A model generated the notes under the pieces. It worked only from the letters and a program-made list of their open reading frames with translations. It made no database searches and was not told the DNA's origin. A stretch of DNA of 44,417 nucleotides from a virus (taxonomy: Duplodnaviria > Heunggongvirae > Uroviricota > Caudoviricetes). Positions 17,181-44,417 of this stretch are shown here, one piece after another (positions within the stretch are counted from its first letter, which is position 1; the number at the start of each line of letters is the position of its first letter). The DNA lies in the IMG/VR virus record IMGVR_UViG_2606217118_000001; one strand, 5' to 3'. The position numbers and the translations under genes are program-made.

Positions 17181-17191
17181 AGCGCCTCCCG

Positions 17192-19042: not shown

Positions 19043-19051
19043 AAACATCCC

Positions 19052-20371: not shown

Positions 20372-24052
<3,681 letters not shown>

Positions 24053-26513: not shown

Positions 26514-26855
26514 AGCGTCTTTACCTTTTAGAAAGTGAGCCTGTCTCACAGAAAAGCCGCCCGAGAGAGGTCGCCACCTATAACGGCATTTCTCAGGCTC
26601 GCTTACTGAAAGGCTCTCGTTAATATGCGCGTGAGATGCGCTGTGAAATTCAGATATAAAAAGCCCCGCGAATGCGAGGCTAAATCCTGGTATTTGTAAT
26701 GAACTGGCTCTTATCTCAACGCAGCCCCTTACTGCGCGCCAGATGCTCAATATCAAGCATCAGCAATGAGATGTTTAATCTGGATTTACTCCAGAAGTGA
26801 TCACCACCCTGTCTACAGAGCCAGATGTGAAGGATGATGAGTAAAATTATCGCTA

Positions 26856-27323: not shown

Positions 27324-27817
27324 TGTTTCCCCCACAAACAGACTTCACGCTCAATCTCACGGCGAGTCATCAGTCCTTTCCATTGATTACCGCCAGCGTA
27401 TGTCCAGCGCCGTAGCTGATCACATGCGCCTTTGATATCACCCTGGTTTATTTTGCGAAGAAGCGTCGATGTTCTGAAATTGCCAGCACCCACGTTGTAG
27501 ACGAACGAGTAAAGAGCGCCGCGCGTTGTTTCCGGTATATCGACTTTGATGTACGGGTTAATTTGTCTGGCGACAGTGGCAAGGTCTTTATTCAGGAGGG
27601 CTTTGCACTCTGCTTCGGTATACGTTTTACCGGGAATGATGTCTTTTCCTGTATGCCCGTAACATACAGTCCATACACCAACTATGTCTTTGTAAGGATT
27701 ATGTCTCACACCTTCCAGACCATCGTTACCACTTGGGCCAGTGATTAACACAGATGCTATAGCAATAGCCCCGCCACCAATAGCAGCAGCAACAGCTTTT
27801 CGTAATGATGGAGGCAT
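27320..27817 (-). CDS. R: SAR endolysin (T4-lysozyme-like, phage 21 R / DLP12 RrrD-like)
   Basis: 165 aa; N-terminal Gly/Ala-rich SAR segment [20 protein letters not shown]; E...D...T catalytic spacing; ATGA overlap with S stop. Confidence 0.9.
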
Positions 27818-28032
27818 TATCCACCTCTCGCAGCCTTGCGCTTATCTTCTTTAATCTTGAAATAAAGGTTTGTCAGGTACGTCAGCAGGCCAAATACCAG
27901 GCTACCCAGCACTCCAATTGCCGCCCACTGTGAGGGCGTGACTTTATCGAGCAGCTGTAAAAACCAGTACCCGGCACTACCTGCTGAGGTGCCATAGGCG
28001 ACACCCGTTGTTAACTTATCCATGGATTTCAT
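27817..28032 (-). CDS. S: Class II holin (pinholin, S21/EssD-like) with dual-start motif
   Basis: 71 aa [71 protein letters not shown]; two TMDs; Met1 and Met4. Confidence 0.9.
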
Positions 28033-28155
28033 AACCCCACCTCGCAGACAAAGCGGGTGTAAATTGAGGGAATACTACGAAACGTAACAGACTCGGAGTC
28101 AGTGAATAACTCAGGTATTGGGTTATCAGCTAATATCGAGACTCAAAAAATGGAA

Positions 28156-28190
28156 AAACCCGCTCGACGGCGGGTTTAAGCTGTGTGACG
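28156..28190 (-). terminator. Rho-independent terminator upstream of S (candidate tR' of short late leader transcript)
   Basis: Minus strand aaacccgc-cgtcga-gcgggttt perfect 8-bp stem followed by ttccatttttt. Confidence 0.6.
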
Positions 28191-28603
28191 AAGTAACCAC
28201 TCTTAACAGCATAACCAATTTTTTACGTACGTAAACCACTAAATGATATTTGCGAGAATGCTACCGAGTATTGAAAACACCACTACAAATACATAAGCAA
28301 ATCTCAACAAATAACCAACAAATAATTTCCAGCGTTATTTTTAGCTGGTTTAAATTGAATCTTCAAATTATAGAGCACTTATAAATAACAGCCATTAATA
28401 TAAATTGGCTAATAGATTTATTTTTATTCAGCCAAGAGCCATGAATAGGATTCGATAGAAAAAGTTCAGATAAAAATAGAGATCTACTTCACAAATCAAA
28501 TGAGAAACCAAAACTTACATCTTGAAATAATCACATTGATTAGATGAATATTTATCGCGCAGTGACATCATTTTTTAATAATAGTTCAAAAAAAGGGCTC
28601 ACG

Positions 28604-29686
28604 ATGAAAAAATTAACAGTGGCAATTTCTGCTGTAGCTGCATCAGTACTGATGGCGATGTCTGCTCAGGCAGCTGAAATTTATAATAAAGACAGTAACA
28701 AGCTGGATCTGTACGGGAAAGTTAATGCTAAGCACTACTTCTCCTCTAATGATGCAGATGATGGTGATACTACTTATGCCCGTCTTGGCTTCAAAGGTGA
28801 AACCCAAATCAACGATCAACTGACTGGTTTCGGTCAGTGGGAATATGAATTCAAAGGCAACCGCGCTGAATCTCAAGGTTCCTCCAAAGATAAAACCCGT
28901 CTTGCCTTCGCTGGCCTGAAATTCGGTGACTACGGCTCCATCGATTATGGCCGTAACTACGGTGTAGCATACGATATTGGTGCATGGACCGACGTTCTGC
29001 CAGAATTCGGTGGCGATACCTGGACCCAAACAGATGTATTCATGACTGGTCGCACCACAGGTGTTGCAACTTATCGTAACAATGACTTCTTTGGTCTGGT
29101 TGATGGTCTGAACTTTGCTGCTCAGTATCAGGGTAAAAATGACCGCACTGACGTAACTGAAGCTAATGGTGATGGTTTCGGTTTCTCCACTACTTATGAG
29201 TATGAAGGATTCGGTGTAGGTGCAACCTATGCTAAATCTGACCGCACTAATAATCAGGTTATCTACGGTAACAACAGCCTGAATGCATCTGGTCAAAATG
29301 CTGAAGTATGGGCAGCTGGTCTGAAATATGATGCGAACAACATCTATCTGGCTACCACCTATTCTGAAACCCAGAACATGACTGTTTTTGGTAATAACCA
29401 TATTGCCAACAAAGCACAAAACTTCGAAGTAGTTGCACAATATCAGTTCGACTTCGGTCTGCGTCCGTCCGTTGCTTACCTGCAATCTAAAGGAAAAGAC
29501 TTGGGTGCGTGGGGTGATCAGGACCTGGTTGAATATATTGATGTAGGTGCAACCTATTACTTCAACAAAAATATGTCCACTTTTGTTGATTACAAAATCA
29601 ACCTGATTGATAAGAGCGATTTCACGAAAGCATCTGGCGTTGCTACCGATGATATCGTTGCTGTAGGTATGGTTTACCAGTTCTAA
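28604..29686 (+). CDS. Outer membrane porin, OmpC/OmpF/PhoE family (phage-borne Lc/NmpC-like)
   Basis: Signal peptide [39 protein letters not shown]..., C-terminal ...VGMVYQF; AAGGG SD; longer upstream ORF extension rejected. Confidence 0.9.
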
Positions 29687-29711
29687 TTTGATTACTAAAA
29701 GATATGTTGCG

Positions 29712-29730
29712 GGAGGCTTTGCCTCCCCAA
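29712..29730 (+). other. Stem-loop (gggaggc-ttt-gcctccc) in porin 3' region
   Basis: Perfect 7-bp inverted repeat 26 nt after porin stop. Confidence 0.5.
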
Positions 29731-29821
29731 CATATAAGTGGCTCCCTCAAGCCACTTCCTTTAGGAGCACAACCTTGCTTCTAACTATATAAACCTTCTG
29801 TTATATATTACCCTTTATTTT

Positions 29822-29860
29822 TGGGGGCGTCTCAACGCCCCATTTTTAATAATTTTTAGT
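29822..29860 (+). terminator. Rho-independent terminator-like hairpin downstream of porin gene
   Basis: ggggcgtctcaacgcccc stem-loop followed by atttttaataattttt. Confidence 0.55.
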
Positions 29861-29874
29861 AAACAATTGGCATA

Positions 29875-30258
29875 TTAATTAGAGTTATTAACAACGATAT
29901 CCATCTCTAACCGGATATCTAATGCCATTAACATCCCTTCAATTATACCCTCAGCCTTCTGTAACCTTTTCCCGATATAACCATCAGAGCAGCAATGCTT
30001 ACCTGCCAGTGACATGAATGTCATACCGACTACATAATAATCTACTAATAAATCGTGCAAATCGCTGTTGTTCTTTTTCAGACGGGCCATGCACCCGCAA
30101 ATGATCATCGCGTCATCGTCACAACATTGCGGGCGAGATTTTACTTTTGAAGGAATTAATCCCTTAAAACCGGCGGCAATGGACGACCAGGTCACATCTT
30201 CATGATTATTAGCCGCCCACGCTCCCCAACGCTCAAGAACCATCTGAATATCACGCAT
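29875..30258 (-). CDS. Q: Late-gene antiterminator Q (DLP12 QuuD-like)
   Basis: Start at ATG giving [24 protein letters not shown]... (127 aa); track ORF begins at an upstream TTG. Confidence 0.85.
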
Positions 30259-30343
30259 CAACTTACTCCACAAAAATCAGACCAGAACGCTAATTACAAG
30301 CAAAAATCAACAAAACAGTATTAGTTGATTGTTATCTCTGACT

Positions 30344-30484
30344 TCATACTCCTGCTCCTGTCAGGGTTTTGGCGTAATTCTTCAGTATTCGGTAATCGGT
30401 CAAAACAGAACCGGGGAAACGATATAAGCGCAGACGCCCCCAGCGGTGGCGAAGACGCTCTGCCATATAAGACTCAAACATCAT
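30344..30484 (-). CDS. Small protein YlcG-like (46 aa)
   Basis: [46 protein letters not shown]; start ATGATG overlaps rusA stop. Confidence 0.55.
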
Positions 30485-30843
30485 TCATCTCCCAGTTCGG
30501 TGATGGTCAGTTCCAGCCTCCCACCTTTGGTAACAGGCATCTTCACAACGCGGTAATCAACGACCTGAGCATCATCCAGCCAGAAACCTGCTTTGGTGAG
30601 TGCGTCAAAAGCGGCCTTTTGCAGATTATCCAGGTCACGGCGACGGCGATCCGGCATGTGGCACTCAATGCGGATTTTCACAGGCATAGCCAGGCCGATA
30701 TCCAGCATTGCGTTTTTAATGATTCGGGCGACGTTATCGCGGTATGCCTGCCCCTCTGCGCTGATGTGCGTGCGCCCGCGATTATGGCGGTAATAGCGAT
30801 TATTGCTCGGAGGCCAGGGTAATGTGATGCTGTAGGTATTCAC
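30481..30843 (-). CDS. rusA: Holliday junction resolvase RusA
   Basis: 120 aa ...[40 protein letters not shown]...; GTG start. Confidence 0.9.
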
Positions 30844-30968
30844 GCCTTAATAACCCCCTCTTTCAGCCAGATAACCTGTGTTCTCGCCATACCTTCCAGC
30901 GCGCATTCTTTTGCATATGCAGCATCGACTTGCTTGGCATGCCCTTTACCGGCAATCTTCTGTATGCG
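30840..30968 (-). pseudogene. C-terminal remnant of a YbcO-like gene, closed upstream by two in-frame TAG codons
   Basis: Frame reads [42 protein letters not shown] with stop overlapping rusA start (GTGA); no start codon; identity from memory. Confidence 0.35.
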
Positions 30969-31049
30969 CTAAACCTAGATAGAATCCACTCTGTGCACAT
31001 TGAAGCCCGCTCTATGCTTCCTTTCAGGTATTGAAGGGATTGAGATGGG

Positions 31050-31397
31050 CTAAGCATTATTGGCCTCCTGCATCAGGAGAAAGACAATCATGGCGGCGCG
31101 GAGGGGTCTGGTATCAAATATTGGGCTTACGCCTTTTGCATCCACACACCATTCAGTTAACTGGTCTAAGATAGAAATCCTGTATTTCTCAATAATCGGC
31201 CATGAAGCGCTCGGATCATTGCAGTAGTCAGGCAAATGATTTAATGGCTCAAAAGTTGTATCAGCATTTCCGTAATACCATTTGTTGGTGTTATTCCCTG
31301 ATGTTTCCGGTTTACTTGCCCAAAGGCCTTTAAAAATTATGTCTCCTACCATTCTGTTAATTTCAAAATCACTTAACTGTGAATAATCCATTGTCAT
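31050..31397 (-). CDS. NinX-like phage protein (unknown function)
   Basis: Start [43 protein letters not shown]...; ATGA overlap with ninE stop. Confidence 0.6.
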
Positions 31398-31570
31398 TTC
31401 CTCGCACGATATCTTAGCCACCGGATATCCCACAGGTGAGCTGTGTAATTGAAGGTTTTTACGTCAGATTCTTTTGGGATTGGCTTGCGTTTATTTCTGG
31501 AGCGTTTCGTTGGAAGGTATTTGCAGTTTTCGCAGATGATGTCGGTGAAACTTCGTCGCTGTCGCCTCAT
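31394..31570 (-). CDS. ninE: NinE
   Basis: 58 aa [58 protein letters not shown]; ATGA overlap with upstream methyltransferase stop. Confidence 0.75.
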
Positions 31571-32094
31571 GCCGCCCTCCTGACGCCCTGCCCGATCGCC
31601 ATCAATGCCGCTTTGGATACGGTAGTAAACATCCGCCGAGGACTGATGAACGGTCGCCAAATCAGCAGCATGGAGCCTTTGCTGTTTCCCTTCTTCTCCA
31701 GCCCTGTCGATGGTTCGATAAAATTAATCCGTCCATCAGTGATAATGCGAACTTCGTCGACACTCTCCAGAGCCTTGCTGAACCATCCGACTGACATATC
31801 CTCTGGCACAAGCATAACTACCGTCTGTCGCTGTTGTATGCACTGCTCAGCGGCTTTTTCCACCCACGGCCTGATATTGCTGTACGGTGGGTTATTCCAG
31901 ATTGCACCGTGGCTTATCCACTCAGAATTTAGCGCGTCGTCGGCCTCAGTTAACCAGTGAGCGCACAGAGCATTTTTGTCGCTCGCTGCAGAATCCAGCC
32001 AGAATCCAAACTCAATATCCAGTGCATCAAAAAGCCAAAGCGGCGTTTGCCAGCAGTCCTTGTCGTGTGCTGGCGTATTTGATTTGATAGTCAT
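31567..32094 (-). CDS. Orphan DNA N6-adenine methyltransferase (phage Dam-like, NPPY motif)
   Basis: Start [41 protein letters not shown]...; catalytic NPPYS motif; ATGA overlap with ninB stop. Confidence 0.8.
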
Positions 32095-32531
32095 GCAGCC
32101 CGATCTCCCCATCTCGCTTTCCACTCCAGAGCCAGTCTCGCTTCGTCTGACCACTTAACGCCACGCTCTGTACCGAATGCCTGTATAAGCTCTAATAGCT
32201 CCGCAAATTCGCCTACACGCATCCTGCTGGTTGACTGGCCTATTACCACAAAGCCATTCCCGGCAAGGTTAGGAACAACATCCTGCTGCTTTAATGCTGC
32301 GGTAAACACACACTTCCAGCTTTCTGCATCCAGCCAGCGACCATGCCATTCAACCTGACGAGAGACGTCACCTAAGCAGGCCCATAGCTTCCTGTTTTGG
32401 TCTAAGCTGCGGTTGCGTTCCTGAATGGTTACTACGATTGGTTTGGTTGGGTCTGGAAGGATTTGCTGTACTGCGTGAATAGCGTTTTGCTGATGTGCTG
32501 GAGATCGAATTTCAAAGGTTAGTTTTTTCAT
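32091..32531 (-). CDS. ninB: NinB recombination protein
   Basis: Start MKKLTFEIRSPAHQQNAIHAVQQILPDPTKPIVVTIQERNRSLDQNRKLWA...; 146 aa. Confidence 0.9.
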   Translation of the reverse strand: MKKLTFEIRSPAHQQNAIHAVQQILPDPTKPIVVTIQERNRSLDQNRKLWACLGDVSRQVEWHGRWLDAESWKCVFTAALKQQDVVPNLAGNGFVVIGQSTSRMRVGEFAELLELIQAFGTERGVKWSDEARLALEWKARWGDRAA

Positions 32532-32604
32532 GACTTCCCTCTCCCCCAAATAAAAAGGCCTGCGATTACCAGCAGGCCTGTTATTAGCTCAGTAATGTAG
32601 ATGG

Positions 32605-32895
32605 TCATCTTTTAACTCCATATACCGCCAATACCCGTTTCATCGCGGCACTCTGGCGACACTCCTTAAAAATCAGGTTCGTGCTCATCTTTCCTTCCCG
32701 TTCTTCCCTGGTAGCAAACCGGTAATACACCGTTCGCCAGACCTTACCTTCGATAACCAGAAGACCTGCCCGTGCCATTTTAGCCGCGGCCTGATTTATG
32801 CTGGTTACTGTTGCGCCTGTTAGCGCGGCAACGTCCGGCGCACAGAAGCTATTATGCGTCCCCAGGTAATGAATAATTGCCTCTTTGCCCGTCAT
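32605..32895 (-). CDS. ren: Ren protein
   Basis: 96 aa MTGKEAIIHYLGTHNSFCAPDVAALTGATVTSINQAAAKMARAGLL... Confidence 0.9.
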   Translation of the reverse strand: MTGKEAIIHYLGTHNSFCAPDVAALTGATVTSINQAAAKMARAGLLVIEGKVWRTVYYRFATREEREGKMSTNLIFKECRQSAAMKRVLAVYGVKR

Positions 32896-33593
32896 ACACT
32901 TGCTCCTTTCAGTCCGAACTTAGCTTTAATTTCTGCGATCTTCGCCAGAGCCTGTGCACGATTTAGAGGTCTACCGCCCATGACAGGAAGTTGTTTTACT
33001 GGTTCAGGGATCGCCTCACCACGGTTAATTCTCGCAGTCATATGGACAAGCTCATCTGCGGCCTTACGGCGTAATTCCGCATCAGTAAGCGCATTGGCCC
33101 GCATGTTCTGATACAGGTTGGTAACCAGCCAGTAGTGCGCGTTTGATTTCCACGGATAAGACTCCGCATCCGGATACAGGCCTCGCTTCCGGCAATACTC
33201 GTAAACCATATCAACCAGCTCGCTGACGTTTGGCAGTCCGGCGGTAACGGATGCTTCTTCCCGGCACCATGCAACAAACTGCCCGGGTGATGGCAGAAAT
33301 GGTCGATTCTGCCGACGGGCTACGCGCATTCCTGCGTTAACCTGTTCCATCGTGGTGATCCCGTTTTCCCGAAAAGCCAGAACCCACTGGCGACGGATTT
33401 CGTTCACTTCGTTCTGGTCACGGTTAGCCAGGCTCGCCGGGAAAGTTGCCAGTAACTGGCTGAACACACCGTTGATGATCTGCGCTACCTGCTGTACCTG
33501 CGGCTTTTCGTCGTACTGTTCCGGCATGTTGTTGGCGATCCGACGCATCTGCTCACGGTCAAAGTTAACCATCTGTGCGGCGATGTTTTTCAT
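32892..33593 (-). CDS. P: Replication protein P (helicase loader)
   Basis: 233 aa MKNIAAQMVNFDREQMRRIANNMPEQYDEKPQVQQVAQIINGVFSQ... Confidence 0.95.
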   Translation of the reverse strand: MKNIAAQMVNFDREQMRRIANNMPEQYDEKPQVQQVAQIINGVFSQLLATFPASLANRDQNEVNEIRRQWVLAFRENGITTMEQVNAGMRVARRQNRPFLPSPGQFVAWCREEASVTAGLPNVSELVDMVYEYCRKRGLYPDAESYPWKSNAHYWLVTNLYQNMRANALTDAELRRKAADELVHMTARINRGEAIPEPVKQLPVMGGRPLNRAQALAKIAEIKAKFGLKGASV

Positions 33594-34489
33594 AGATCCA
33601 CCCCGTAAATCCAGTCTGTGTTTGTCAGGTCGAGTTTTGGTTTGCTGGCTGTCACGCCTGCCTGTTGCTTGTTACGGTTGATTTCGAGTTGGGTCCACTT
33701 ATCGCGGAGTTTGGCCGGGCTCAGCACGTTACCGGACCAGAAGTTGTCCTGGCATGCCCAGCGGAACAGCACACACATGTCGCGGTGGTTACGTCCGTCA
33801 CGTTCACGCATCAGGCGGATATCGTTAGCCCACCCAGCAAAATTCGGTTTTCTGGCTGATGGTGCGATAGTCTTCACCATGTCAAACATCCACTCTGCGG
33901 CGGTCAGGTCTTCTGCTGTCCCCCACTTGCTGCCGCTCTGAATTGCAGCATCCGGTTTCACCACAGAAAGGTCGTTTTCTGGCTGGTCAGAGGATTCGCC
34001 AGAATTCTCGGACGAATAATCTTTTCTTTTTTCTTTTGTAATAGTGTCTTTTGTGTCCCCCTGTTTTGAGGGATAGCAATCCCCCAATTTGAGGGATGTT
34101 TTATCCCTCGTTTTAGGGGATTTTCCCTCGTTTTGAGGGATACACCATTCTGAGATGTTTTTATTTGGTCCAAACATGCCGCCTTGCTGCTTGATAATAT
34201 TCATTCTGACGAGTTCTAACTTGGCTTCATTGCACCGTTTGACAGGTAACTTTGTAATCTCGCTAAGTTGAGAATCGGTGATTCTGTCCATTGGTTTATT
34301 CCACCCATAGGTTTTACGCAGAATGGCAAGCAGCACTTTAAACTGTCGCTTGGTCAGATCTGCGCCCGAATAAGCCTCAAGCAGCATATTTGATAGTCTG
34401 GCGTAACCATCATCGAGATCTGCCACATTACGCTCCTGTCCGGCAAAGTTACCTCTGCCGAAGTTGAGTATTTTTGCTGTATTTGTCAT
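33590..34489 (-). CDS. O: Replication initiator protein O
   Basis: 299 aa MTNTAKILNFGRGNFAGQERNVADLDDGYARLSNMLLEAYSG...; contains ori. Confidence 0.95.
   Translation of the reverse strand: MTNTAKILNFGRGNFAGQERNVADLDDGYARLSNMLLEAYSGADLTKRQFKVLLAILRKTYGWNKPMDRITDSQLSEITKLPVKRCNEAKLELVRMNIIKQQGGMFGPNKNISEWCIPQNEGKSPKTRDKTSLKLGDCYPSKQGDTKDTITKEKRKDYSSENSGESSDQPENDLSVVKPDAAIQSGSKWGTAEDLTAAEWMFDMVKTIAPSARKPNFAGWANDIRLMRERDGRNHRDMCVLFRWACQDNFWSGNVLSPAKLRDKWTQLEINRNKQQAGVTASKPKLDLTNTDWIYGVDL
34058..34142. repeat. ori: Replication origin: four iterons (O-binding sites) with adjacent AT-rich segment (about 34011-34056)
   Basis: ccccctgttttgaggga / atcccccaatttgaggga / atccctcgttttagggga / ttccctcgttttgaggga, each an inverted repeat; T-rich run alongside. 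Confidence 0.9.
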
Positions 34490-34566
34490 AATGACTCCTG
34501 TTGATAGATCCAGTAATGACCTCAGAACTCCATCTGGATTTGTTCAGAACGCTCGGTTGCCGCCGG
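34490..34566 (+). ncRNA. oop: oop antisense RNA (overlaps 3' end of cII) with its terminator
   Basis: Plus-strand hairpin cgctcggttgccgccgggcg followed by TTTTTTATT at 34541-34568, as recalled for the lambda oop terminator; 5' end approximate. Confidence 0.55.
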
Positions 34567-34818
34567 GCGTTTTTTATTGGTGAGTCCATCAAGCGCATAC
34601 TTAAAAGCCCTGCTAATCGGACTGATGTCTGATGCCATTCCGAAAGCACACAAGACCGAAGCAATAAATCTCCAGTCCGTTCTGCTTATCTTCGATTCAT
34701 GACAGCCAATCATCTTTGCCAGACCGCGCTGGGTAATAGCTGACAGATTGATAAGTAAATCTGTTTCTGCGCGATCAACGTCACGCTGTGATAGTTTGCT
34801 GTAACTTGTTCTTTCCAT
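34522..34818 (-). CDS. cII: Transcriptional activator CII, chimeric (non-lambda N-terminal region, lambda-like C-terminus)
   Basis: 98 aa; C-terminus ...LTNKKRPAATERSEQIQMEF matches lambda CII, N-terminal ~75 aa do not. Confidence 0.8.
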   Translation of the reverse strand: MERTSYSKLSQRDVDRAETDLLINLSAITQRGLAKMIGCHESKISRTDWRFIASVLCAFGMASDISPISRAFKYALDGLTNKKRPAATERSEQIQMEF

Positions 34819-34899
34819 TTCTTAAGATTTCCAATAGTGAATAGTTAGTTGAAAGGTATGCGTGGAAACGCATATGGCCTTAGTTGGTCAGATATCTTG

Positions 34900-34950
34900 G
34901 AACTCGCTTTTCAGCGACGTAGGACGAATGTCCGTTGTTACAAAGAGCGG
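34900..34950 (-). promoter_or_regulatory. nutR-like site (boxA plus boxB hairpin)
   Basis: Minus strand CGCTCTTTGTAACAA (boxA-like) followed by tcgctgaaaagcga hairpin, immediately downstream of cro. Confidence 0.6.
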
Positions 34951-34959
34951 ATCCGCTTA

Positions 34960-35175
34960 TTAAGCGGCTTTGTGTTCCGGCGGGAACACGTCATCAAGAC
35001 TGACTTTTGCGCCTAACTTGTTTAGGCACGCAACAAGAGCACGGCATGTTTTAAGGTCTGGGAAGCGACGACCAGATTCCCAATGTCCGATAGCTCCCTG
35101 TGTGCATCCAACTGCCTTAGCAAGTGTTGTTTGAGAGATATTCAGTGACTCTCGATATTTTCGTAGGTTGCTCAT
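34960..35175 (-). CDS. cro: Cro-like repressor (HTH, XRE family), non-lambda
   Basis: 71 aa MSNLRKYRESLNISQTTLAKAVGCTQGAIGHWESGRRFPDLKTCRALVACLNKLGAKVSLDDVFPPEHKAA; GGAGGG SD; longer upstream ORF extension rejected. Confidence 0.8.
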   Translation of the reverse strand: MSNLRKYRESLNISQTTLAKAVGCTQGAIGHWESGRRFPDLKTCRALVACLNKLGAKVSLDDVFPPEHKAA

Positions 35176-35286
35176 ATGCCCTCCATAGTAAACACGAATA
35201 AAAAAATACAATATGTACTTTACGAATACAAGTAAAAATACACATTGTGCATGGATGGTTCCAGTACAAAGCGTAATAATAAGGAC
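35176..35286. promoter_or_regulatory. Divergent cro/cI control region (putative OR operators, PR and PRM)
   Basis: AT-rich with repeated TACAA/TTGTA-type inverted half-sites (tacaatatgta, tacacattgtg, tacaagta); between divergent cro and cI. Confidence 0.55.
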
Positions 35287-35946
35287 ATGAAAATGAAATG
35301 GTATGAACTGGCTAGATCCAGAATGAAAGAGCTCGGCATAACTCAAGAGAAGTTAGCCGAAGAGCTAGGTATGACGCAGGGTGGGATTGGACACTGGTTG
35401 CGCGGATCTCGTCATCCATCTCTTAGTGATATTGGTGTGGTGTTTAAATACCTTGGTATTGATAACATATCATTCAACCACGACGGGACATTTTCACCTG
35501 TTGGCGAATACTCATCGGCCCCAGTTAAAAAACAATATGAGTACCCTGTTTTTTCTCATGTTCAGGCTGGGATGTTCTCTCCAGAACTCAGAACCTTTAC
35601 CAAAGGCGATGCGGAGAGATTGGTAAGCACAACCAAAAAAGCCAGTGACTCTGCATTCTGGCTTGAGGTTGAAGGTAACTCAATGACCGCACCAACAGGT
35701 TCCAAGCCCAGCTTTCCTGACGGGATGTTAATTCTGGTTGACCCTGAGCAGGCTGTTGAGCCAGGCGATTTCTGTATAGCCAGACTTGGTGGTGATGAGT
35801 TTACCTTCAAGAAACTGATCAGGGATAGCGGTCAGGTGTTTCTACAGCCACTAAACCCACAATACCCAATGATCCCATGCAATGAGAGTTGTTCCGTTGT
35901 GGGGAAAGTTATCGCTAGTCAGTGGCCTGAAGAGACGTTTGGGTGA
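35287..35946 (+). CDS. cI: CI repressor, chimeric: novel N-terminal HTH domain fused to lambda-like C-terminal S24/LexA-type domain
   Basis: [40 protein letters not shown]...; from [15 protein letters not shown] onward matches lambda CI; start could be 35293. Confidence 0.85.
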
Positions 35947-36012
35947 TATATGTGAAATGCATATATTGATATAAATGCAGCAATATCAAATAGTTAAAAG
36001 GTTATATTTTTA

Positions 36013-36393
36013 ATGAATGATCTTGATAAGAAAAAGTACGACCAAGTTATTGATTCTGTGAACTTCGCCCTTAGATCGTTGTCAGAGTTATTCGAAGCCC
36101 ATGGAATGCATGGGATGTATGATCTAACGAATCCAAGCCTTGATGAGCTAAAATTAGTGTTTACAAGGATGAAAAACGGAGTTGACTCTATTGCTCAAAG
36201 CTTTGAGCACATGGTAGAGACAGCAAAGGATATGGATGCCGCAAGTGCAAGCATAAATGTTATGAACATCAAGCAAGGATTGATGTATGCTGAATCACTA
36301 TTGCTTGCTGTAGAGAAATTAGACTATGATAAATGTGTGGAAGCAAATACGCAGATAAAAACCCACGATCTTCCACCAACCCAATGGCCTTAA
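36013..36393 (+). CDS. Hypothetical 126-aa protein in the immunity-region moron slot (rexAB position); unknown function
   Basis: ORF MNDLDKKKYDQVIDSVNFALRSLSELFEAHGMHGMYDLTNPSLDELK...; AT-rich codon usage unlike backbone; follows cI on same strand. Confidence 0.65.
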   Translation: MNDLDKKKYDQVIDSVNFALRSLSELFEAHGMHGMYDLTNPSLDELKLVFTRMKNGVDSIAQSFEHMVETAKDMDAASASINVMNIKQGLMYAESLLLAVEKLDYDKCVEANTQIKTHDLPPTQWP

Positions 36394-36462
36394 TAGTAAA
36401 TCAAGATTTCATATAGTCTATTTGAACTAGGCTAGTACCATAAAATAAACCGAGGAAACGCA

Positions 36463-36564
36463 ATGAAAACCATGTCCACTCTGCACAAAGATGCAATGAC
36501 CCTGAGATCTCTCATTAACGAGATTCTGGCTCGCTCGTCAGCACACACCAAAAAAGCTGCATAA
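36463..36564 (+). CDS. Hypothetical 33-aa protein downstream of the 126-aa moron gene
   Basis: MKTMSTLHKDAMTLRSLINEILARSSAHTKKAA with strong SD GAGGAAA 6 nt upstream; followed by terminator. Confidence 0.45.
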   Translation: MKTMSTLHKDAMTLRSLINEILARSSAHTKKAA

Positions 36565-36574
36565 TGCCTACATA

Positions 36575-36603
36575 ACCCGGCCTCAGCGCCGGGTTTTCTT
36601 TGC
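36575..36603 (+). terminator. Rho-independent terminator ending the cI-moron transcript
   Basis: acccggc-ctcagc-gccgggt hairpin followed by TTTTCTTT. Confidence 0.75.
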
Positions 36604-36739
36604 CTCACGATCGCCCCACCTAAAAACACATAACCAATTGTATTTATTGAAAAATAAATAGATGCAACCCACTAAACCACGCAATTCTGATCTCTCCTTA
36701 CATCGCCGAGGCAATACATCCACGCTAAAAAACAACACT

Positions 36740-36830
36740 ATTAAATACAAAGCGTTATAAAAAACCACGCCAACTTACAACAAATTGTATTGATCTTGTA
36801 AAGTACATATCGCACTATTTAACCGTCAGC
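36740..36830 (+). promoter_or_regulatory. Putative OL/PL region
   Basis: AT-rich segment upstream of nutL with operator-like motifs (acaaattgtattgatcttgtaaagtaca) resembling those between cro and cI. Confidence 0.4.
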
Positions 36831-36864
36831 AGGACGCTGGAAGCCAAATGGAACAGACTGGCAG

Positions 36865-36909
36865 GCTCTTTAAACAACGTCGACTCTCGACTACGTGGCT
36901 GAAAAGCCA
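36865..36909 (+). promoter_or_regulatory. nutL-like site (boxA GCTCTTTAAACAA plus boxB hairpin tggctgaaaagcca)
   Basis: boxA-like motif then GAAAA-loop hairpin closely matching the nutR hairpin; lies upstream of N. Confidence 0.6.
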
Positions 36910-37007
36910 GATCACCCAACCACATAAGCTGTGGGATGCAATGCCGAAGCAACCGTCTCAGGAGGAGCTTCGAGATTGCATCGCCAAAGTTTATTCGGGA
37001 GGAATCC

Positions 37008-37280
37008 ATGTCCAGAAAAACAGAATTTAAAGGCACCGCAGCTTCTCGCCGTAGAGCTCGTCGCGCAAATCTGCAAAGTCAGGAGGCGATCAGCTCCGAC
37101 ACGCTACACAGGCCAACCCCTTCACGAGTGGTCTTGCAATGCAAGCGCAAACCAGCAATGAGAGCAGAAGTGATAACTCTGACAACGTTGACCAGAAAAT
37201 ATGAAGGTTCAACTTGTCTTCCGAACGTAGCTCTTTACGCGGCAGGCTACCGGAAATCAAAACAACTGACGGCGAGATGA
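37008..37280 (+). CDS. N: Antitermination protein N (non-lambda; P22 gp24-like C-terminus) with N-terminal arginine-rich motif
   Basis: MSRKTEFKGTAASRRRARRANLQSQE...LPNVALYAAGYRKSKQLTAR; SD GGGAGGAA; longer track ORF starts upstream. Confidence 0.75.
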   Translation: MSRKTEFKGTAASRRRARRANLQSQEAISSDTLHRPTPSRVVLQCKRKPAMRAEVITLTTLTRKYEGSTCLPNVALYAAGYRKSKQLTAR

Positions 37281-37296
37281 TAAATTCATTTGCTAA

Positions 37297-37878
37297 TTAC
37301 TTGTTTTTGCCATGCTTATCCTGAGCGATAAGTTCATCCATAAGGCTGTCTGCCTTCCCGGCAAACCGAATGTAGCACTCATTTCTATAGCGTTCCGGGA
37401 TAACAAAACGGTCGATTTCAGGATATCCAGTAGCAGAAGGTATCCGAATAAGAAGCCCTTTTTCGAGCAATGAGATTGCTTCAGGGCTTCCCTTTTCTGT
37501 CTTTAGCTGGTTATTCGCGGCTACAGCGAATGCCAAATACGCTCTTTCTCCAAGAGTTAACGAATCAAACAAATCTTGCACATATTTTTCTTCTTTAGAT
37601 TTGCACTTCTGAGCAGCGGATACCTCAATTCTTTCAGTCACAGCGTGATAAGCGGAATTAACAACACCGTTAAGCACATAGCTAACGCAGAACAACAGGA
37701 TGTAATACATCCAATAATAAGGAAGGATTTCTGGATTATGCAGGTTTATCCATTCTTTTACGCTTACCGGCATAACAATAATCAATATGATCAGGATGAT
37801 TAGCATATGAATCAACTGTTTAAGTGTCATTCCTTGCAGGAAAAAATGCATTAGTTCCTGCCACCATGAGTTGTTCAT
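37297..37878 (-). CDS. sieB: Superinfection exclusion protein B (SieB-like) membrane protein, antisense to the PL operon
   Basis: 193 aa MNNSWWQELMHFFLQGMTLKQLIHMLIILIILIIVMPVSV... with two hydrophobic segments; convergent with N. Confidence 0.6.
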   Translation of the reverse strand: MNNSWWQELMHFFLQGMTLKQLIHMLIILIILIIVMPVSVKEWINLHNPEILPYYWMYYILLFCVSYVLNGVVNSAYHAVTERIEVSAAQKCKSKEEKYVQDLFDSLTLGERAYLAFAVAANNQLKTEKGSPEAISLLEKGLLIRIPSATGYPEIDRFVIPERYRNECYIRFAGKADSLMDELIAQDKHGKNK

Positions 37879-38022
37879 CGGCGTTTCTCTTTTGCTCTCT
37901 GTAGGGGTGAATAGAGTTTATCCGATTTCTCGCTGTAGGGGTACACGAGAACCACCGAGCCTGATGTGGTTAAAAGACAGGCACAATCTTTACTACCGCA
38001 ATCCACTATTTAAGGTGATATA

Positions 38023-38109
38023 TGGAAGAAGAATTTGAAGAGTTCGAAGAGCATCCTCAGGATGTGATGGAACAATACCAGGACTATCCGTATGACTACG
38101 ACTATTGAT
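38023..38109 (+). CDS. Small acidic ORF (lambda orf28-like)
   Basis: MEEEFEEFEEHPQDVMEQYQDYPYDYDY, 28 aa, overlapping start of ral. Confidence 0.35.
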
Positions 38110-38292
38110 AAAAATCAATGGTGTGGACAATTCAAGCGATGCAATGGATGCAAGCTGCAATCGGAATGCATGGTTAAGCCTGAAGAAATGTTTCCTGTAA
38201 TGGAAGATGGGAAATATGTCGATAAATGGGCAATACGAACGACGGCAATGATTGCCAGAGAACTTGGTAAACAGAACAACAAAGCTGCCTGA
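38092..38292 (+). CDS. ral: Restriction alleviation protein Ral
   Basis: 66 aa MTTTIDKNQWCGQFKRCNGCKLQSECMVKPEEMFPVMEDGKYVDKWAIRTTAMIARELGKQNNKAA. Confidence 0.85.
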   Translation: MTTTIDKNQWCGQFKRCNGCKLQSECMVKPEEMFPVMEDGKYVDKWAIRTTAMIARELGKQNNKAA

Positions 38293-38474
38293 TAGTGGCC
38301 TTTATTTTTGGCATAAATAACAGAATAAACACTGCACTGTGTATTCATTCCAACGAGTGAATACACGGAGCAATGTCGCTCGTAACTAAACAGGAGCCGA
38401 CTTGTTCTGATTATTGGAAATCTTCTTTGCCCTCCAGTGTGAGGGCGATTTTTTATCTATGAGGATATGAATAG

Positions 38475-38843
38475 ATGTCAAACATCAAAAAATACATCAT
38501 TGATTACGACTGGAAAGCATCAATAGAAATTGAAATCGATCATGACGTAATGACAGAGGAAAAACTTCACCAGATTAATAATTTCTGGTCAGACTCTGAA
38601 TACCGACTCAATAAACACGGCTCTGTATTAAATGCTGTATTAATCATGCTGGCGCAACATGCTCTGCTTATAGCAATTTCAAGCGACTTAAATGCATATG
38701 GTGTTGTGTGTGAGTTCGACTGGAATGATGGAAATGGTCAGGAAGGATGGCCTCCAATGGATGGTAGCGAAGGAATAAGAATTACCGATATCGATACATC
38801 AGGAATATTTGATCCAGATGATATGACTATCAAAGCCGCCTGA
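38475..38843 (+). CDS. ea10: Ea10-like early protein
   Basis: 122 aa MSNIKKYIIDYDWKASIEIEIDHDVMTEEKLHQINNFWSDSEYRLNKHG... Confidence 0.6.
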   Translation: MSNIKKYIIDYDWKASIEIEIDHDVMTEEKLHQINNFWSDSEYRLNKHGSVLNAVLIMLAQHALLIAISSDLNAYGVVCEFDWNDGNGQEGWPPMDGSEGIRITDIDTSGIFDPDDMTIKAA

Positions 38844-38916
38844 GCGCGGCGTTACCGCATACCAATAACGCTTCACTCGAGGCGTTTTTCGTTATGTATA
38901 AATAAGGAGCACACCA

Positions 38917-39054
38917 TGCAATATGCCATTGCAGGGTGGCCTGTTGCTGGCTGCCCTTCCGAATCTTTACTTGAACGAATCACCCGTAAATTACGTGACG
39001 GATGGAAACGCCTTATCGACATACTTAATCAGCCAGGAGTACCCAAAAATGGAT
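38917..39054 (+). CDS. cIII: CIII (FtsH/HflB inhibitor), 45 aa, C-terminally shorter than lambda CIII
   Basis: [46 protein letters not shown]; stop TAA overlaps kil start. Confidence 0.8.
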
Positions 39055-39192
39055 AAAAAACTTATGGCTATCCAGACAAAATTCACTATTGCCACTTTTA
39101 TTGGCGATGAAAAGATGTTTCGTGAGGCCGTCGACGCTTATAAAAAATGGATATTAATACTGAAACTGAGATCAAGCAAAAGCATTCACTAA
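39049..39192 (+). CDS. kil: Kil (host division inhibitor)
   Basis: 47 aa [47 protein letters not shown]; longer track ORF starts upstream. Confidence 0.7.
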
Positions 39193-39563
39193 CCCCCTTT
39201 CCTGTTTTCCTAATCAGCCCGGCATTTCGCGGGCGATATTTTCACAGCTATTTCAGGAGTTCGGCCATGAACGCTTATTACATTCAGGATCGTCTTGAGG
39301 CTCAGAGCTGGGCGCGTCACTACCAGCAGATAGCCCGTGAAGAGAAAGAGGCAGAACTGGCAGACGACATGGAAAAAGGCCTGCCCCAGCACCTGTTTGA
39401 ATCGCTATGCATCGATCATTTGCAACGCCACGGGGCCAGCAAAAAAGCCATTACCCGTGCGTTTGATGACGATGTTGAGTTTCAGGAGCGCATGGCAGAA
39501 CACATCCGGTACATGGTTGAAACCATTGCTCACCATCAGGTTGATATTGATTCAGAGGTATAA
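39147..39563 (+). CDS. gam: Gam (RecBCD inhibitor)
   Basis: 138 aa [61 protein letters not shown]... Confidence 0.95.
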
Positions 39564-39568
39564 AACGG

Positions 39569-40354
39569 ATGAGTACAGCACTCGCAACGCTGGCAGGGAA
39601 GCTGGCTGAACGTGTCGGCATGGATTCTGTCGACCCACAGGAACTGATCACCACTCTTCGCCAGACGGCATTTAAAGGCGATGCCAGCGATGCGCAGTTC
39701 ATCGCATTGTTGATCGTCGCCAACCAGTACGGCCTTAATCCGTGGACGAAAGAAATTTACGCCTTCCCTGACAAGCAGAACGGCATCGTTCCGGTGGTGG
39801 GCGTTGATGGCTGGTCCCGTATCATCAATGAAAACCAGCAGTTTGATGGCATGGACTTTGAGCAGGACAATGAATCATGTACATGCCGGATTTACCGCAA
39901 GGACCGTAATCATCCGATCTGCGTTACCGAGTGGATGGATGAATGCCGCCGCGAACCATTCAAAACCCGCGAAGGCAGAGAAATCACCGGACCGTGGCAG
40001 TCGCATCCCAAACGGATGTTACGGCATAAAGCCATGATTCAGTGTGCCCGTCTGGCCTTCGGATTTGCTGGTATCTATGACAAGGATGAAGCCGAGCGCA
40101 TTGTCGAAAATACCGCATACACTGCAGAACGTCAGCCGGAACGCGACATCACTCCGGTTAACGATGAAACCATGCAGGAGATTAACACTATGCTGATTGC
40201 CCTGGACAAAACATGGGATGACGACTTATTGCCGCTCTGTTCCCAGATATTTCGCCGCGACATTCGCGCATCGTCAGAACTGACACAGGCCGAAGCAATG
40301 AAAGCTCTTGGATTCCTGAAACAGAAAGCCTCTGAACAGAAGGTGGCTGCATGA
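39569..40354 (+). CDS. bet: Bet (Red-beta single-strand annealing protein)
   Basis: 261 aa [66 protein letters not shown]... Confidence 0.95.
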
Positions 40355-41031
40355 CACCGGACATTATCCTGCAGCGTACCGGGATCGACGTGAGAGCTGT
40401 CGAACAGGGGGATGATGCATGGCACAAATTACGGCTCGGCGTCATCACCGCTTCAGAAGTTCACAACGTGATAGCAAAGCCCCGCTCAGGAAAGAAGTGG
40501 CCTGACATGAAAATGTCCTACTTCCACACCCTGCTGGCTGAGGTTTGCACCGGTGTGGCTCCGGAAGTTAACGCTAAGGCGCTGGCCTGGGGAAAACAGT
40601 ACGAGAACGACGCCAGAACCCTCTTTGAGTTCACTTCCGGCGTTAATGTTACTGAATCCCCGATCATCTATCGCGACGAAAGTATGCGCACCGCCTGCTC
40701 TCCCGATGGTTTATGCAGTGACGGCAACGGCCTTGAACTGAAATGCCCGTTTACCTCCCGGGATTTCATGAAGTTCCGGCTCGGTGGTTTCGAGGCCATA
40801 AAATCGGCTTACATGGCCCAGGTGCAGTACAGCATGTGGGTGACGCGAAAAGATGCCTGGTACTTTGCCAACTATGACCCACGAATGAAGCGTGAAGGCC
40901 TGCATTATGTCGTGGTTGAGCGGGATGAAAATTACATGGCGAGTTTTGACGAGATGGTGCCGGAGTTCATCGAAAAAATGGACGAGGCACTGGCTGAAAT
41001 TGGTTTTGTATTTGGGGAGCAATGGCGATGA
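40351..41031 (+). CDS. exo: Exo (Red-alpha 5'-3' exonuclease)
   Basis: 226 aa [65 protein letters not shown]... Confidence 0.95.
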
Positions 41032-41210
41032 CGCATCCTCACGATAATATCCGGGTAGGCGCGATCACTTTCGTCTACTCCATTACAAAGCGAGGCTGGG
41101 TATTTCCCGGCCTTTCTGTTATCAGAAATCCCCTGAAAGCACAGCGGCTGGCTGAGGAGATAAATAATAAACGGGGAGCTGTATGCACAAAGCATCTCCC
41201 GTTGAGTTAA
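41022..41210 (+). CDS. Small early-left protein (lambda orf61-like)
   Basis: 62 aa [54 protein letters not shown]... Confidence 0.6.
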
Positions 41211-41374
41211 GAACGAGTATCGAGATGGCACATAGCCTCGCTCAAATTGGAGTCAGGTTTGTGCCAATACCAGTAGAAACAGACGAAGAATTTCATACGT
41301 TAGCCGCATCCCTTTCACAAAAGCTGGAAATGATGGTGGCGAAAGCAGAAGCAGATGAGAGAGACCAGGTATGA
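41183..41374 (+). CDS. Small early-left protein (lambda orf63-like)
   Basis: 63 aa [63 protein letters not shown]. Confidence 0.6.
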   Translation: MHKASPVELRTSIEMAHSLAQIGVRFVPIPVETDEEFHTLAASLSQKLEMMVAKAEADERDQV

Positions 41375-41450
41375 CAACCACTGAATGCATTTTTCTGGCA
41401 GCGGGCTTCATATTCTGTGTGCTTATGCTTGCCGACATGGGGCTTGTTCA

Positions 41451-41666
41451 ATGACACCTCAGCAAGAAAACGCCCTTCGCAGCATTGCCCGTCAGGCTAA
41501 TTCTGAAATCAAAAAAGCCAGACAGCAGTTTCCGGATAAAAACGTCGATGACATTTGCCGTAGCGTACTAAAGAAGCACCGCGAAACGGTAACGCTGATG
41601 GGATTCACACCGACTCATTTAAGCCTGGCGATCGGCATGTTGAACGGCGTCTTTAAGGAACGGTGA
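41451..41666 (+). CDS. Small early-left protein (lambda orf60a-like)
   Basis: Start MTPQQENALRSIARQANSEIKKARQQFPDKNVDDICRSVLKKHRETVTLMGF...; longer ORF extension rejected. Confidence 0.6.
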   Translation: MTPQQENALRSIARQANSEIKKARQQFPDKNVDDICRSVLKKHRETVTLMGFTPTHLSLAIGMLNGVFKER

Positions 41667-41764
41667 ACATGAAAAGCAAAATCATCAGGGAGCTACAGGC
41701 TCCTTTTTTATTATTCGCATTCACCCTCAAGCGTATTAACCAACAATTCAGGGATTAATGAAAG

Positions 41765-41986
41765 ATGGCAGACATCATTGATTCAGCATCAGAAATTGAA
41801 GAATTACAGCGCAACACAGCAATAAAAATGCGCCGCCTGAACCACCAGGCTATATCTGCCACTCATTGTTGTGAGTGTGGCGATCCGATAGATGAACGAA
41901 GACGCTTGGCCGTTCAGGGTTGTCGGACTTGTGCAAGTTGCCAGGAGGATCTGGAACTTATCAGTAAACAGAGAGGTTCGAAGTGA
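41765..41986 (+). CDS. TraR/DksA-family C4 zinc-finger protein (lambda orf73-like)
   Basis: 73 aa with CxxC-x17-CxxC (CCECGDPIDERRRLAVQGCRTCASC). Confidence 0.65.
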   Translation: MADIIDSASEIEELQRNTAIKMRRLNHQAISATHCCECGDPIDERRRLAVQGCRTCASCQEDLELISKQRGSK

Positions 41987-42531
41987 GCGAAATTAACTCT
42001 CAGGCACTGCGTGAGGCGGCAGTAGCAATTGAAACAGTAGCAACACCTCAAAAATTGCTGGCATTTCGTATGAAAGTCACACCTCAGGTTGTGCTGGCTC
42101 TACTGGATGAACGAGATGCATTAAATGAACGCCTAGCCGAACTGGAGGCTGATTTAGCAGGGCTGGCCGAAGACCACCAGAAAGCGACTGAGTCAATTAA
42201 GCAGGCTGATGCAGCTGTTAAGTTGGCACACGAGAAGTTTTCGGCGCTGGCGGCGGAGAATGAGCTGGCTCGTAAAGCAGTTCAGGAATTCTGCGATGTT
42301 GTTGGCGACAGCACCGAGGTTATCTGCGAGGAGATTGGGAGAGATGGTGTTCTGGTTATTTTGGAGGCCATGAAGGCAACAGGAAATATGCCAGCCACCG
42401 ATGCTTTCCTGGCTGAAGTACGGGCGCAGGGGGTGGAGATGATGCGCGAACATCCATCAATCAAACTTTGCTCTTTGACGCACATATGTGATGAGTTAGC
42501 CGCCCAGCTTCGCAAAGGAGGCAACCAGTGA
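41983..42531 (+). CDS. ea22: Ea22-like protein (coiled-coil), unknown function
   Basis: 182 aa MSEINSQALREAAVAIETVATPQKLLAFRMKVTPQVVLALLDERDALNERLAELEADLAG... Confidence 0.65.
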   Translation: MSEINSQALREAAVAIETVATPQKLLAFRMKVTPQVVLALLDERDALNERLAELEADLAGLAEDHQKATESIKQADAAVKLAHEKFSALAAENELARKAVQEFCDVVGDSTEVICEEIGRDGVLVILEAMKATGNMPATDAFLAEVRAQGVEMMREHPSIKLCSLTHICDELAAQLRKGGNQ

Positions 42532-42661
42532 CTGGACATGCAGCAATCCTCGACATGTGCTGTGGCAGTCGCATGTTCTGGTTAGATAAGAATGACGAAC
42601 GGGCGAGATAAGCGATCGGTTAAGTGCTATAGTAATGCGCTTTTGTATTTATGGAGTGAAT

Positions 42662-43360
42662 ATGAAAAATATCCTACTGGCATCATTGTTAGTGGCATCG
42701 CCGGGTGCATTTGCAGCCAGCTTTGACTGCCAAAAGGCTTCGACAGCAATCGAACATAAAATCTGCGATAACGAACGTCTGTCAAAATTAGACGAACAGC
42801 TTAGCTCTGCCTATTCTAGTGCCCTCAAAGGAAACCCAGAGAACGCAGACACCCTAAAAATGGTTCAACGTCAGTGGGTAAATATGCGTGGAAAACTCAC
42901 TGATAATAAGGCTCTGGAGCTGGCTTATCTTATCCAAATTAATGGCCTCAAAGGTTTGGGGAGTTCAGTCAGCGTAACAGCGGCCAATGACATACCCACG
43001 TCGGCGCAGAAACATTCTAAAGAGCAGGAAGATACAAGTAAGGCAGAAGCTAAGTCGGTCAAGAACGGCAATAAGCTAACCTTAGAGTCATTCCGAGCTA
43101 AATATGTAGAAGTAGATGGTGAGTATTACAGCACGACATCCATTCCTAGAGGCAGTTCGTTCTTGTTCACTTGCGCTAGTCGTATTGCTGATGACCAAGT
43201 GAATATTTGGAAGAAACAGGCAGCCAAAGAGGGCAAAATCGACCTATTCTTTGAGGTTGAGAATCACTTACACACGGCTATGTTGAACGCCAATTTTCAG
43301 AAGTTGAATTCAGACCCTGCCAAAAGAGGTATTTGTAATCTGATTAACGCAGTGCCGTAA
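42662..43360 (+). CDS. Secreted moron protein with N-terminal DUF1311/LprI-like domain (tentative)
   Basis: Signal peptide MKNILLASLLVASPGAFA then ASFDCQKASTAIEHKICDNERLSKLDEQLSSAY (paired-Cys motif); SD GGAGTG; AT-rich codon usage. Confidence 0.7.
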   Translation: MKNILLASLLVASPGAFAASFDCQKASTAIEHKICDNERLSKLDEQLSSAYSSALKGNPENADTLKMVQRQWVNMRGKLTDNKALELAYLIQINGLKGLGSSVSVTAANDIPTSAQKHSKEQEDTSKAEAKSVKNGNKLTLESFRAKYVEVDGEYYSTTSIPRGSSFLFTCASRIADDQVNIWKKQAAKEGKIDLFFEVENHLHTAMLNANFQKLNSDPAKRGICNLINAVP

Positions 43361-43559
43361 GTAAATTTAGGGCCACAGTTGTGACCTTAAATATTTTTTT
43401 CAGCCTTTTCTTATTTGTAATAAGCAGTACTTGGTAGTGCTTATAAAACAGAATAAAAAATATATGACTTTGGCGATTACCCAGTAAAGATATTCGAAAT
43501 AAATGTAAATATCGACAATGAATAACTATCCTCGCACTCGCGGGGATTTCTTTTATCTG

Positions 43560-43584
43560 AACTCGCTACGGCGAGTTTTTTTTA
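43560..43584 (+). terminator. Rho-independent terminator
   Basis: actcgc-tacg-gcgagt hairpin followed by TTTTTTTT. Confidence 0.65.
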
Positions 43585-43596
43585 TGGAGATGATAA

Positions 43597-43764
43597 ATGC
43601 ACTTCCGAGTCACAGGTGAATGGAATGGAGAACCATTCAACAGAGTTATCGAAGCCGAGAACATCAGCGACTGCTATGACCACTGGATGCTGTGGGCGCA
43701 GATAGCACATGCAGACGTAACCAATATTCGAATTGAAGAACTGAAAGAACACCAAGCCGCCTGA
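43597..43764 (+). CDS. Hypothetical small protein (55 aa)
   Basis: MHFRVTGEWNGEPFNRVIEAENISDCYDHWMLWAQIAHADVTNIRIEELKEHQAA; SD GGAGATGA; followed by terminator. Confidence 0.5.
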   Translation: MHFRVTGEWNGEPFNRVIEAENISDCYDHWMLWAQIAHADVTNIRIEELKEHQAA

Positions 43765-43778
43765 TGGCGGTTTTTTGT
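43754..43778 (+). terminator. Rho-independent terminator after small ORF
   Basis: gccgcc-tgat-ggcgg hairpin followed by TTTTTT. Confidence 0.7.
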
Positions 43779-43779
43779 G

Positions 43780-44417
43780 CACAGAAAACCCCCAGCTAGG
43801 CTGGGGGTTCCGGAAAGCTTTCAGCTTTGAGCCAGTTATTAAAACCCCTTTTGATTTGTTAAAACACCTTGCGGTCTGGCAACTGCAAGTGTCAAACAAG
43901 AAATCAAAAGGGGGTCCCAATGGGGAACGAAAAGAGCTTAGCGCACACCCGATGGAACTGTAAATATCACATAGTTTTTGCGCCAAAATACCGAAGACAA
44001 GTGTTCTACAGAGAGAAGCGTAGAGCAATAGGCAGTATTTTGAGAAAGCTGTGTGAGTGGAAAAGCGTACGGATTCTTGAAGCTGAATGCTGTGCAGATC
44101 ATATCCATATGCTTGTGGAGATCCCGCCCAAAATGAGTGTATCCGGCTTTATGGGATATCTGAAAGGGAAAAGCAGTCTGATGCTTTACGAGCAGTTTGG
44201 TGATTTGAAATTCAAATACAGGAACAGAGAGTTCTGGTGCAGAGGGTACTACGTCGATACGGTGGGTAAGAACACGGCGAAGATACAGGATTACATAAAG
44301 CACCAGCTTGAAGAGGATAAAATGGGAGAGCAGTTATCGATTCCCTATCCGGGCAGCCCGTTTACGGGCCGTAAGTAACGAAGTTGGATGCAAATGTCAG
44401 ATCGTGTGCGCCTGTTA
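43780..44417 (+). mobile_element. IS200-family insertion sequence, partial (left-end hairpins plus tnpA; right end beyond window)
   Basis: Left-end palindromes cccccagc-tag-gctggggg and gaaagctttc followed by an IS200-type TnpA ORF. Confidence 0.8.
43920..44378 (+). CDS. tnpA: IS200/IS605-family Y1 (HUH) transposase TnpA
   Basis: Start MGNEKSLAHTRWNCKYHIVFAPKYRRQVFYREKRRAIGSILRKLCEWKSVRILEAECCADHIHMLVEIPPK (152 aa). Confidence 0.9.
   Translation: MGNEKSLAHTRWNCKYHIVFAPKYRRQVFYREKRRAIGSILRKLCEWKSVRILEAECCADHIHMLVEIPPKMSVSGFMGYLKGKSSLMLYEQFGDLKFKYRNREFWCRGYYVDTVGKNTAKIQDYIKHQLEEDKMGEQLSIPYPGSPFTGRK

Follow-up and report, generated by a model that had tools for sequence, protein, structure and literature searches.

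The window analysed here, a 44,417-nt stretch of viral DNA, contains the left arm of a lambda-type prophage, with the gene order N, cIII, kil, gam, bet, exo, ea22, an LprI-like gene and orf55, and ends inside an insertion sequence that directly follows orf55 (Table 1). The 232-aa LprI-like gene (42662-43360) lies between ea22 and orf55, the position at which lambda has ea8.5. Its G+C content of 0.44, compared with 0.51 for the window, and the terminator-containing spacer of 0.33 G+C that follows it give this gene the look of moron-type cargo. Elsewhere, the major capsid gene of the window is uninterrupted, whereas in a related prophage of E. coli strain 104 it is split by an 11.3-kb element (11020-22330 of the fetched locus; window 18410-18419). 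With an integrase, a primase, capsid and head-decoration genes of its own, this element looks like a satellite.

Table 1. Features at the 3' end of the window, with the evidence for each.
Feature	Position	Strand	Basis
Terminator-like hairpin with T-rich tail, 5' of orf55	43528..43556	+	fold; terminator scan; matches HK022 tL4
Second terminator-like hairpin, GAACTCGC-tacg-GCGAGTTT and T-run	43559..43585	+	fold; terminator scan
orf55 ribosome-binding site GGAG	43586..43589	+	sequence; 7 nt upstream of ATG
orf55 ORF, 55 aa	43597..43764	+	homologue of lambda lambdap35 (NP_597778)
orf55 intrinsic-terminator-like hairpin and T6	43754..43776	+	fold; identical in lambda and empty-site prophages
IS200C, bases 1-641 of 711	43777..44417	+	0-1 mismatches vs five E. 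coli IS200C copies (RefSeq annotation)
IS200 left-end perfect hairpin	43787..43809	+	fold, -18.7 kcal/mol
Rfam STnc490 match	43787..43910		146.4 bits, E = 1.4e-31
5'UTR stem-loop	43845..43913	+	fold, -34.8 kcal/mol, z = -5.2
tnpA, intact 152-aa Y1 HUH transposase	43920..44378	+	PF01797, NF033573

The counterpart of orf55 in lambda is the ORF at 29118-29285 (lambdap35), the gene directly upstream of xis. The two translations share 96.4% identity, and 86 phage records match orf55. It also matches PHROG 676, a group annotated as of unknown function (5.5e-40), and is without a family match in Pfam or NCBIfam profile searches. Judged by these matches, orf55 is a conserved lambdoid ORF. Of the two terminator-like hairpins upstream of the gene, the first aligns with the annotated 'tL4 terminator' of the HK022 record X51962, while the second directly precedes the orf55 ribosome-binding site. 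A weak Rfam match to rsmX at 43469-43581 (19 bits, gathering score 56, E = 0.58) was put down to chance overlap with these two hairpins and discarded.

The 3' end of orf55 is embedded in a third hairpin of this kind. This hairpin (43754-43773) has the core CCGCC-tgat-GGCGG, with the TGA stop codon in the loop, and is associated with a T6 tract at 43771-43776. The RNA is predicted to fold with -13 to -15 kcal/mol (z = -3.6), and none of 200 shuffled sequences was as stable. The hairpin was not listed by a simple terminator scan of the + strand, probably owing to the extension of its stem into the T-run, and the assignment as a terminator is based on the fold and on its conservation in lambda.

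Members of the IS200/IS605 family encode a Y1 HUH transposase, transpose by a single-strand 'peel and paste' mechanism, insert 3' of a short target sequence without duplicating it, and have sub-terminal hairpins in place of terminal inverted repeats. By sequence, the element that follows orf55 is a standard IS200C, belonging to the IS200 group of this family. A megablast search returned 2,110 E. coli records that cover at least 80% of the IS query with 99.5-99.8% identity, and the matching records are annotated as 'IS200/IS605-like element IS200C family transposase'. Compared with five of these E. coli copies, the window copy shows 0 or 1 difference over 641 bases, and its tnpA has no nucleotide mismatch to two E. 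coli copies annotated as WP_000526135.1, one of which is that of strain D10. TnpA matches both Pfam PF01797 (Y1_Tnp, 3.8e-38) and the NCBIfam equivalog NF033573 (transpos_IS200, 1.9e-43) above cut-off, aligns to the solved TnpA structures PDB 2ec2, 2f5g, 2a6m and 2vjv, and keeps the DHIHM (HUH) motif and the tyrosine of QDYIKHQ. Together with the STnc490 match, these data confirm the original prediction of an IS200-family element. The other parts of that prediction, namely a 55-aa ORF with its own Shine-Dalgarno sequence and terminator, adjoined by the hairpin-rich left end of the element with a tnpA running to 44378, agree with the features in Table 1.

The STnc490 match exceeds its gathering score (146 versus 56 bits) on the + strand, i.e., in the tnpA sense, and its region spans the tnpA 5'UTR and the art200 antisense-RNA region. 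The STnc490/art200 RNA is antisense to the tnpA 5'UTR (PMC4513863), and a match on the + strand does not settle which strand yields the functional RNA. According to PMC4513863 and PMC5435999, bases 12-34 of IS200 form a bidirectional terminator that shields tnpA from outside transcription, and the former source additionally describes how the Shine-Dalgarno sequence of tnpA is hidden in a 5'UTR stem-loop. The left-end hairpin of the window copy corresponds to this terminator, and both the hairpin and the 5'UTR stem-loop fold as described for IS200 in PMC4513863.

Seven full IS200C copies found elsewhere are 711 bp long each. Alignment to other copies places the end of the window at IS base 641, 70 bp short of the right end, and predicts the IS to end at about 44487; the right-end hairpin seen in other IS200C copies belongs to the part that follows the window end. 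Aligning the IS to reference copies, which had been suggested as a way of defining its exact ends, fixed the left end at 43777 and placed the right end outside the window. Two of the E. coli copies, those at glnS and osmE, show no target duplication in comparison with K-12, just a one-T difference in a homopolymer run.

The insertion point can be read directly from three references with an empty site, i.e., lambda, E. coli strain 104 and a prophage of GCA_027278235. In all three, ...GGCGGTTTTTT is followed by CTTGCG, while in the window ...GGCGGTTTTTT is followed by GTGCACAG. In full, the IS-free references continue after ...GGCGGTTTTTT with CTTGCGTGTAATTGCGGAGACTTTGCG-ATG, the ATG being the start of xis. 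The first base of the IS adjoins the final T of the orf55 terminator, which is kept whole, and the element is oriented in the same direction as pL transcription. Since TT closes the flank as well as the IS, the IS ends are ambiguous by at most 2 nt. The left junction is clean with respect to all three empty sites, and the right junction lies beyond the window end.

The xis gene starts 40 nt after the orf55 stop codon in both lambda and the near-identical prophage of GCA_027278235, and the insertion falls within this 39-nt orf55-xis spacer. The relatives with an empty site are identical to lambda at every base of the terminator and the spacer. Downstream of the insertion point lie the CII box of the pI promoter at a distance of 1 nt, the GGAG of xis at 15 nt and the xis ATG at 27 nt. 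The CII box is the sequence TTGC-GTGTAA-TTGC of the empty-site spacer (lambda 29092-29105; also present in the GCA_027278235 prophage), which has the form TTGC-N6-TTGC. Its assignment to pI follows from the exact match to the lambda sequence and from established knowledge of this phage. In lambda, TTGCN6TTGC is the CII-binding repeat that flanks the -35 region of pI (PMC4651098). As far as can be judged by comparison with these references, no coding sequence and no known signal is cut by the insertion.

The position after a terminator is typical for this element. Each of the five E. coli copies lies directly after a hairpin with a T-tract and is co-oriented with its upstream gene, which is a prophage gene for a DUF6645-domain protein (just before the holin gene), atpC, ydcL, osmE or glnS. 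A search with the exact left end in species-representative genomes yielded 72 loci from many Enterobacterales; with the five E. coli copies added, this made 68 distinct left flanks. When a simple terminator rule was applied to these flanks, a hairpin and T-tract in the orientation of the element preceded the IS200C-like insertion in 62 of the 68 (91%), while the same rule was satisfied by just 11 of 2,000 random positions (0.55%) and by 756 of 7,575 T-rich positions (10%). The difference between 10% of T-rich sites and 91% of IS sites rules out that the association is a mere effect of T-runs. All flanks end in TT, and the consensus is TTT(T/A)TT followed by GTGCACAG. Thus, the IS adjoins the orf55 terminator because IS200C-type elements insert almost only after terminators. 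Selection against insertions elsewhere is a possible cause of the bias. A 2026 survey reported an enrichment of sequences resembling terminators immediately 5' of IS elements, with IS200/IS605 showing the strongest effect (PMC13548323), and the preference described here is support for this known pattern, not a discovery. As a separate observation, the ydcL terminator carries IS609 in K-12 and IS200C in strain D10 at one position, at most 1 nt apart, so that a single target after ydcL has served two different elements of the IS200/IS605 family.

Both IS hairpins are preceded by a tract of four to five A residues, and the right end finishes in TTTATT. In IS608, targets are recognised by a guide/cleavage-site logic, and by analogy the A-tracts and the TTTATT end of IS200C would fit such a logic. 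A more far-reaching proposal is that IS200C is a true terminator-seeking element, which recognises the single-stranded hairpin and T-tract of intrinsic terminators, reads the target TTT(T/A)TT by its A4-5 tracts, and settles in lambdoid phages at N-antiterminated terminators, its presence there being tolerated. The present copy, located ahead of xis and 1 nt from the CII box of pI, might then shift the control of integration and excision. This proposal is considered quite unlikely.

In a lambda-type prophage, xis, int and attL are expected on the orf55 side, and the gene order of lambda and of close relatives agrees with this expectation. As originally noted, none of the three is visible in the window. 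However, xis and int are unseen because the window stops 70 bp before the right end of the IS, and their absence therefore carries no information. The prophage of GCA_027278235 differs from window positions 26013-43776 by 3 mismatches in 17,764 nt (99.98% identity) and continues past the junction directly with xis, int and ybhC, the last of which borders the lambda attachment site on the gal side. An excisionase and an integrase gene are found directly 3' of orf55 in 10 of the 10 orf55 contexts listed, and the order orf55, xis/int, ybhC recurs in each of the 30 contigs read for the LprI-like protein, one displayed locus being without a called xis. The orf55-xis stretch is present in 1,719 of 5,426 complete E. 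coli genomes. From these empty-site relatives, we infer that xis and int very probably follow the IS in this genome as well. The window therefore gives no reason to class the prophage as defective or as lacking an integrase, since it ends inside the IS and xis and int are to be expected about 100 bases further on.

The suggestion that the IS had disrupted the integration module is not supported, the insertion being located in the 39-nt spacer, past the terminator and 27 nt short of the xis start codon. The alternative suggestion, a displaced module, probably holds only in the trivial sense that the module has been pushed 711 bp away, and nothing shows that xis or int is missing. Further occurrences of this junction were sought in several collections. 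By megablast, IS200C was found at the orf55-xis junction in none of the 5,426 complete E. coli genomes, and no junction-spanning record was found among 50,697 phage records. The exact 41-mer of the left junction had no match in viral contigs, species-representative genomes or JGI metagenome contigs, and a 35-mer of the predicted right junction had none in metagenome or viral contigs. Look-ups of orf55, of the LprI-like protein and of a 126-aa ORF beside cI, each covering 24 of thousands of index blocks, returned IS-free contexts only. The site is previously unrecorded but typical, and the element itself is known.

The data are best explained by a simple insertion. IS200C has inserted by single-strand 'peel and paste' at the base that follows the final T of the orf55 terminator, and the CII box of pI, the xis ribosome-binding site, xis, int and attL would be intact downstream, from about 71 bases beyond the end of the window. 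The right junction is predicted to read ...GGAGGATATTTATT followed by CTTGCGTGTAATTGCGGAGACTTTGCGATG, alternatively given as GGAGGATATTTATT followed by CTTGCGTGTAATTGCGGAGACTTTGCGATGTACTTG, and then xis (72 aa) and int (356 aa). As a whole, this explanation is held with high confidence. If the prophage resides at attB-lambda, as in its relatives, tnpA would face the replication fork (K-12 coordinates; ybhC on the - strand at 0.806 Mb), which is counted against the simple insertion; the four chromosomal copies checked (atpC, glnS, osmE and ydcL sites) run with the fork.

The same insertion could have polar consequences. Three stacked terminator-like hairpins, those of orf55, of the IS left end and of the IS right end, together with the new DNA upstream of pI, would then lower the levels of Xis and Int, reduce excision or integration and help to fix the prophage in place. 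The left-end hairpin is described as a strong terminator in both directions, at which about 85% of the transcripts arriving from upstream end in the absence of antitermination (PMC5435999), so some polarity on xis and int is possible. In the predicted structure, the DNA upstream of the CII box, which lies just 1 nt from the insertion, is replaced by the IS right end, and this could alter the strength of pI. However, pL transcripts are N-antiterminated and the prophage encodes N (PF25694, 4e-32); N-modified pL transcripts would read through the left-end terminator of the IS as they must through tL4 and the orf55 terminator. Moreover, the lambdoid phages Lambda_ev058 and PhiR63_2 carry the same IS immediately behind tR2, in the interval from ren to ninB and thus ahead of the essential Q gene, which suggests that N-modified polymerase reads through the element. 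In the predicted structure, the CII box, the xis ribosome-binding site and the coding sequences are also untouched. A polar effect is therefore regarded as unlikely; for the simple insertion, the effect on the prophage is expected to be small, with little change in excision.

Alternatively, the IS could mark a rearrangement, in which recombination with another IS200C copy inverted or deleted DNA, so that xis, int and attL are no longer beside orf55 and the prophage is locked in. The number of places occupied by IS200C per E. coli genome (median 1, highest 35) would allow for such an event in some genomes, the exact junction was seen in no other genome searched, and xis and int are absent from the window. 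The last point loses its weight with the position of the window end inside the IS. In addition, the left junction is that of a clean, simple insertion at a site typical of IS200C, and xis-int-ybhC is kept in all close relatives, making a rearrangement very unlikely. An assembly artefact, i.e., a contig end misjoined to a repeat copy of IS200C, would agree with a window that ends inside a repeated element and with a junction that is unique among the public sequences searched, but is extremely improbable, because a random misjoin would not produce a join exactly between the last T of a T-tract and IS base 1, the pattern of 62 of 68 insertions. Overall, the locus represents a common insertion sequence in a common prophage, which matters little and is of value mainly for annotation.

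In comparison with IS200C of E. coli, the window copy has the same left end, hairpins, tnpA and siting after a T-tract, with 0-1 mismatches over 641 bases, and is distinguished by its new location after orf55 (0 of 5,426 complete genomes). The layout also corresponds to that described for IS200 (PMC4513863), with Salmonella IS200 and Yersinia IS1541 as known counterparts: a terminator hairpin at about bases 12-34, a 5'UTR stem-loop hiding the ribosome-binding site, the STnc490/art200 region and a single tnpA. The Salmonella element is 707 bp long compared with 711 bp for the type found in the window, and the nucleotide identity to a Salmonella copy is about 91%. In comparison with lambda, in which lambdap35 is followed by xis, int and attP, orf55 is 96% identical and the spacer of the window is split by the IS. 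Lambda_ev058 (LR597651) and PhiR63_2 (PV340574) contain the same 711-bp element at 1508-2218 of each fetched locus, with the flank ...caggcctttttatt at tR2, while the tR2 site of the window itself (about 32588, - strand) is empty. In these two phages as in the window, the element is co-oriented with an N-dependent early operon and lies directly after a terminator T-tract, but it occupies tR2 of the pR operon in the phages and the orf55 terminator of the pL operon in the window.
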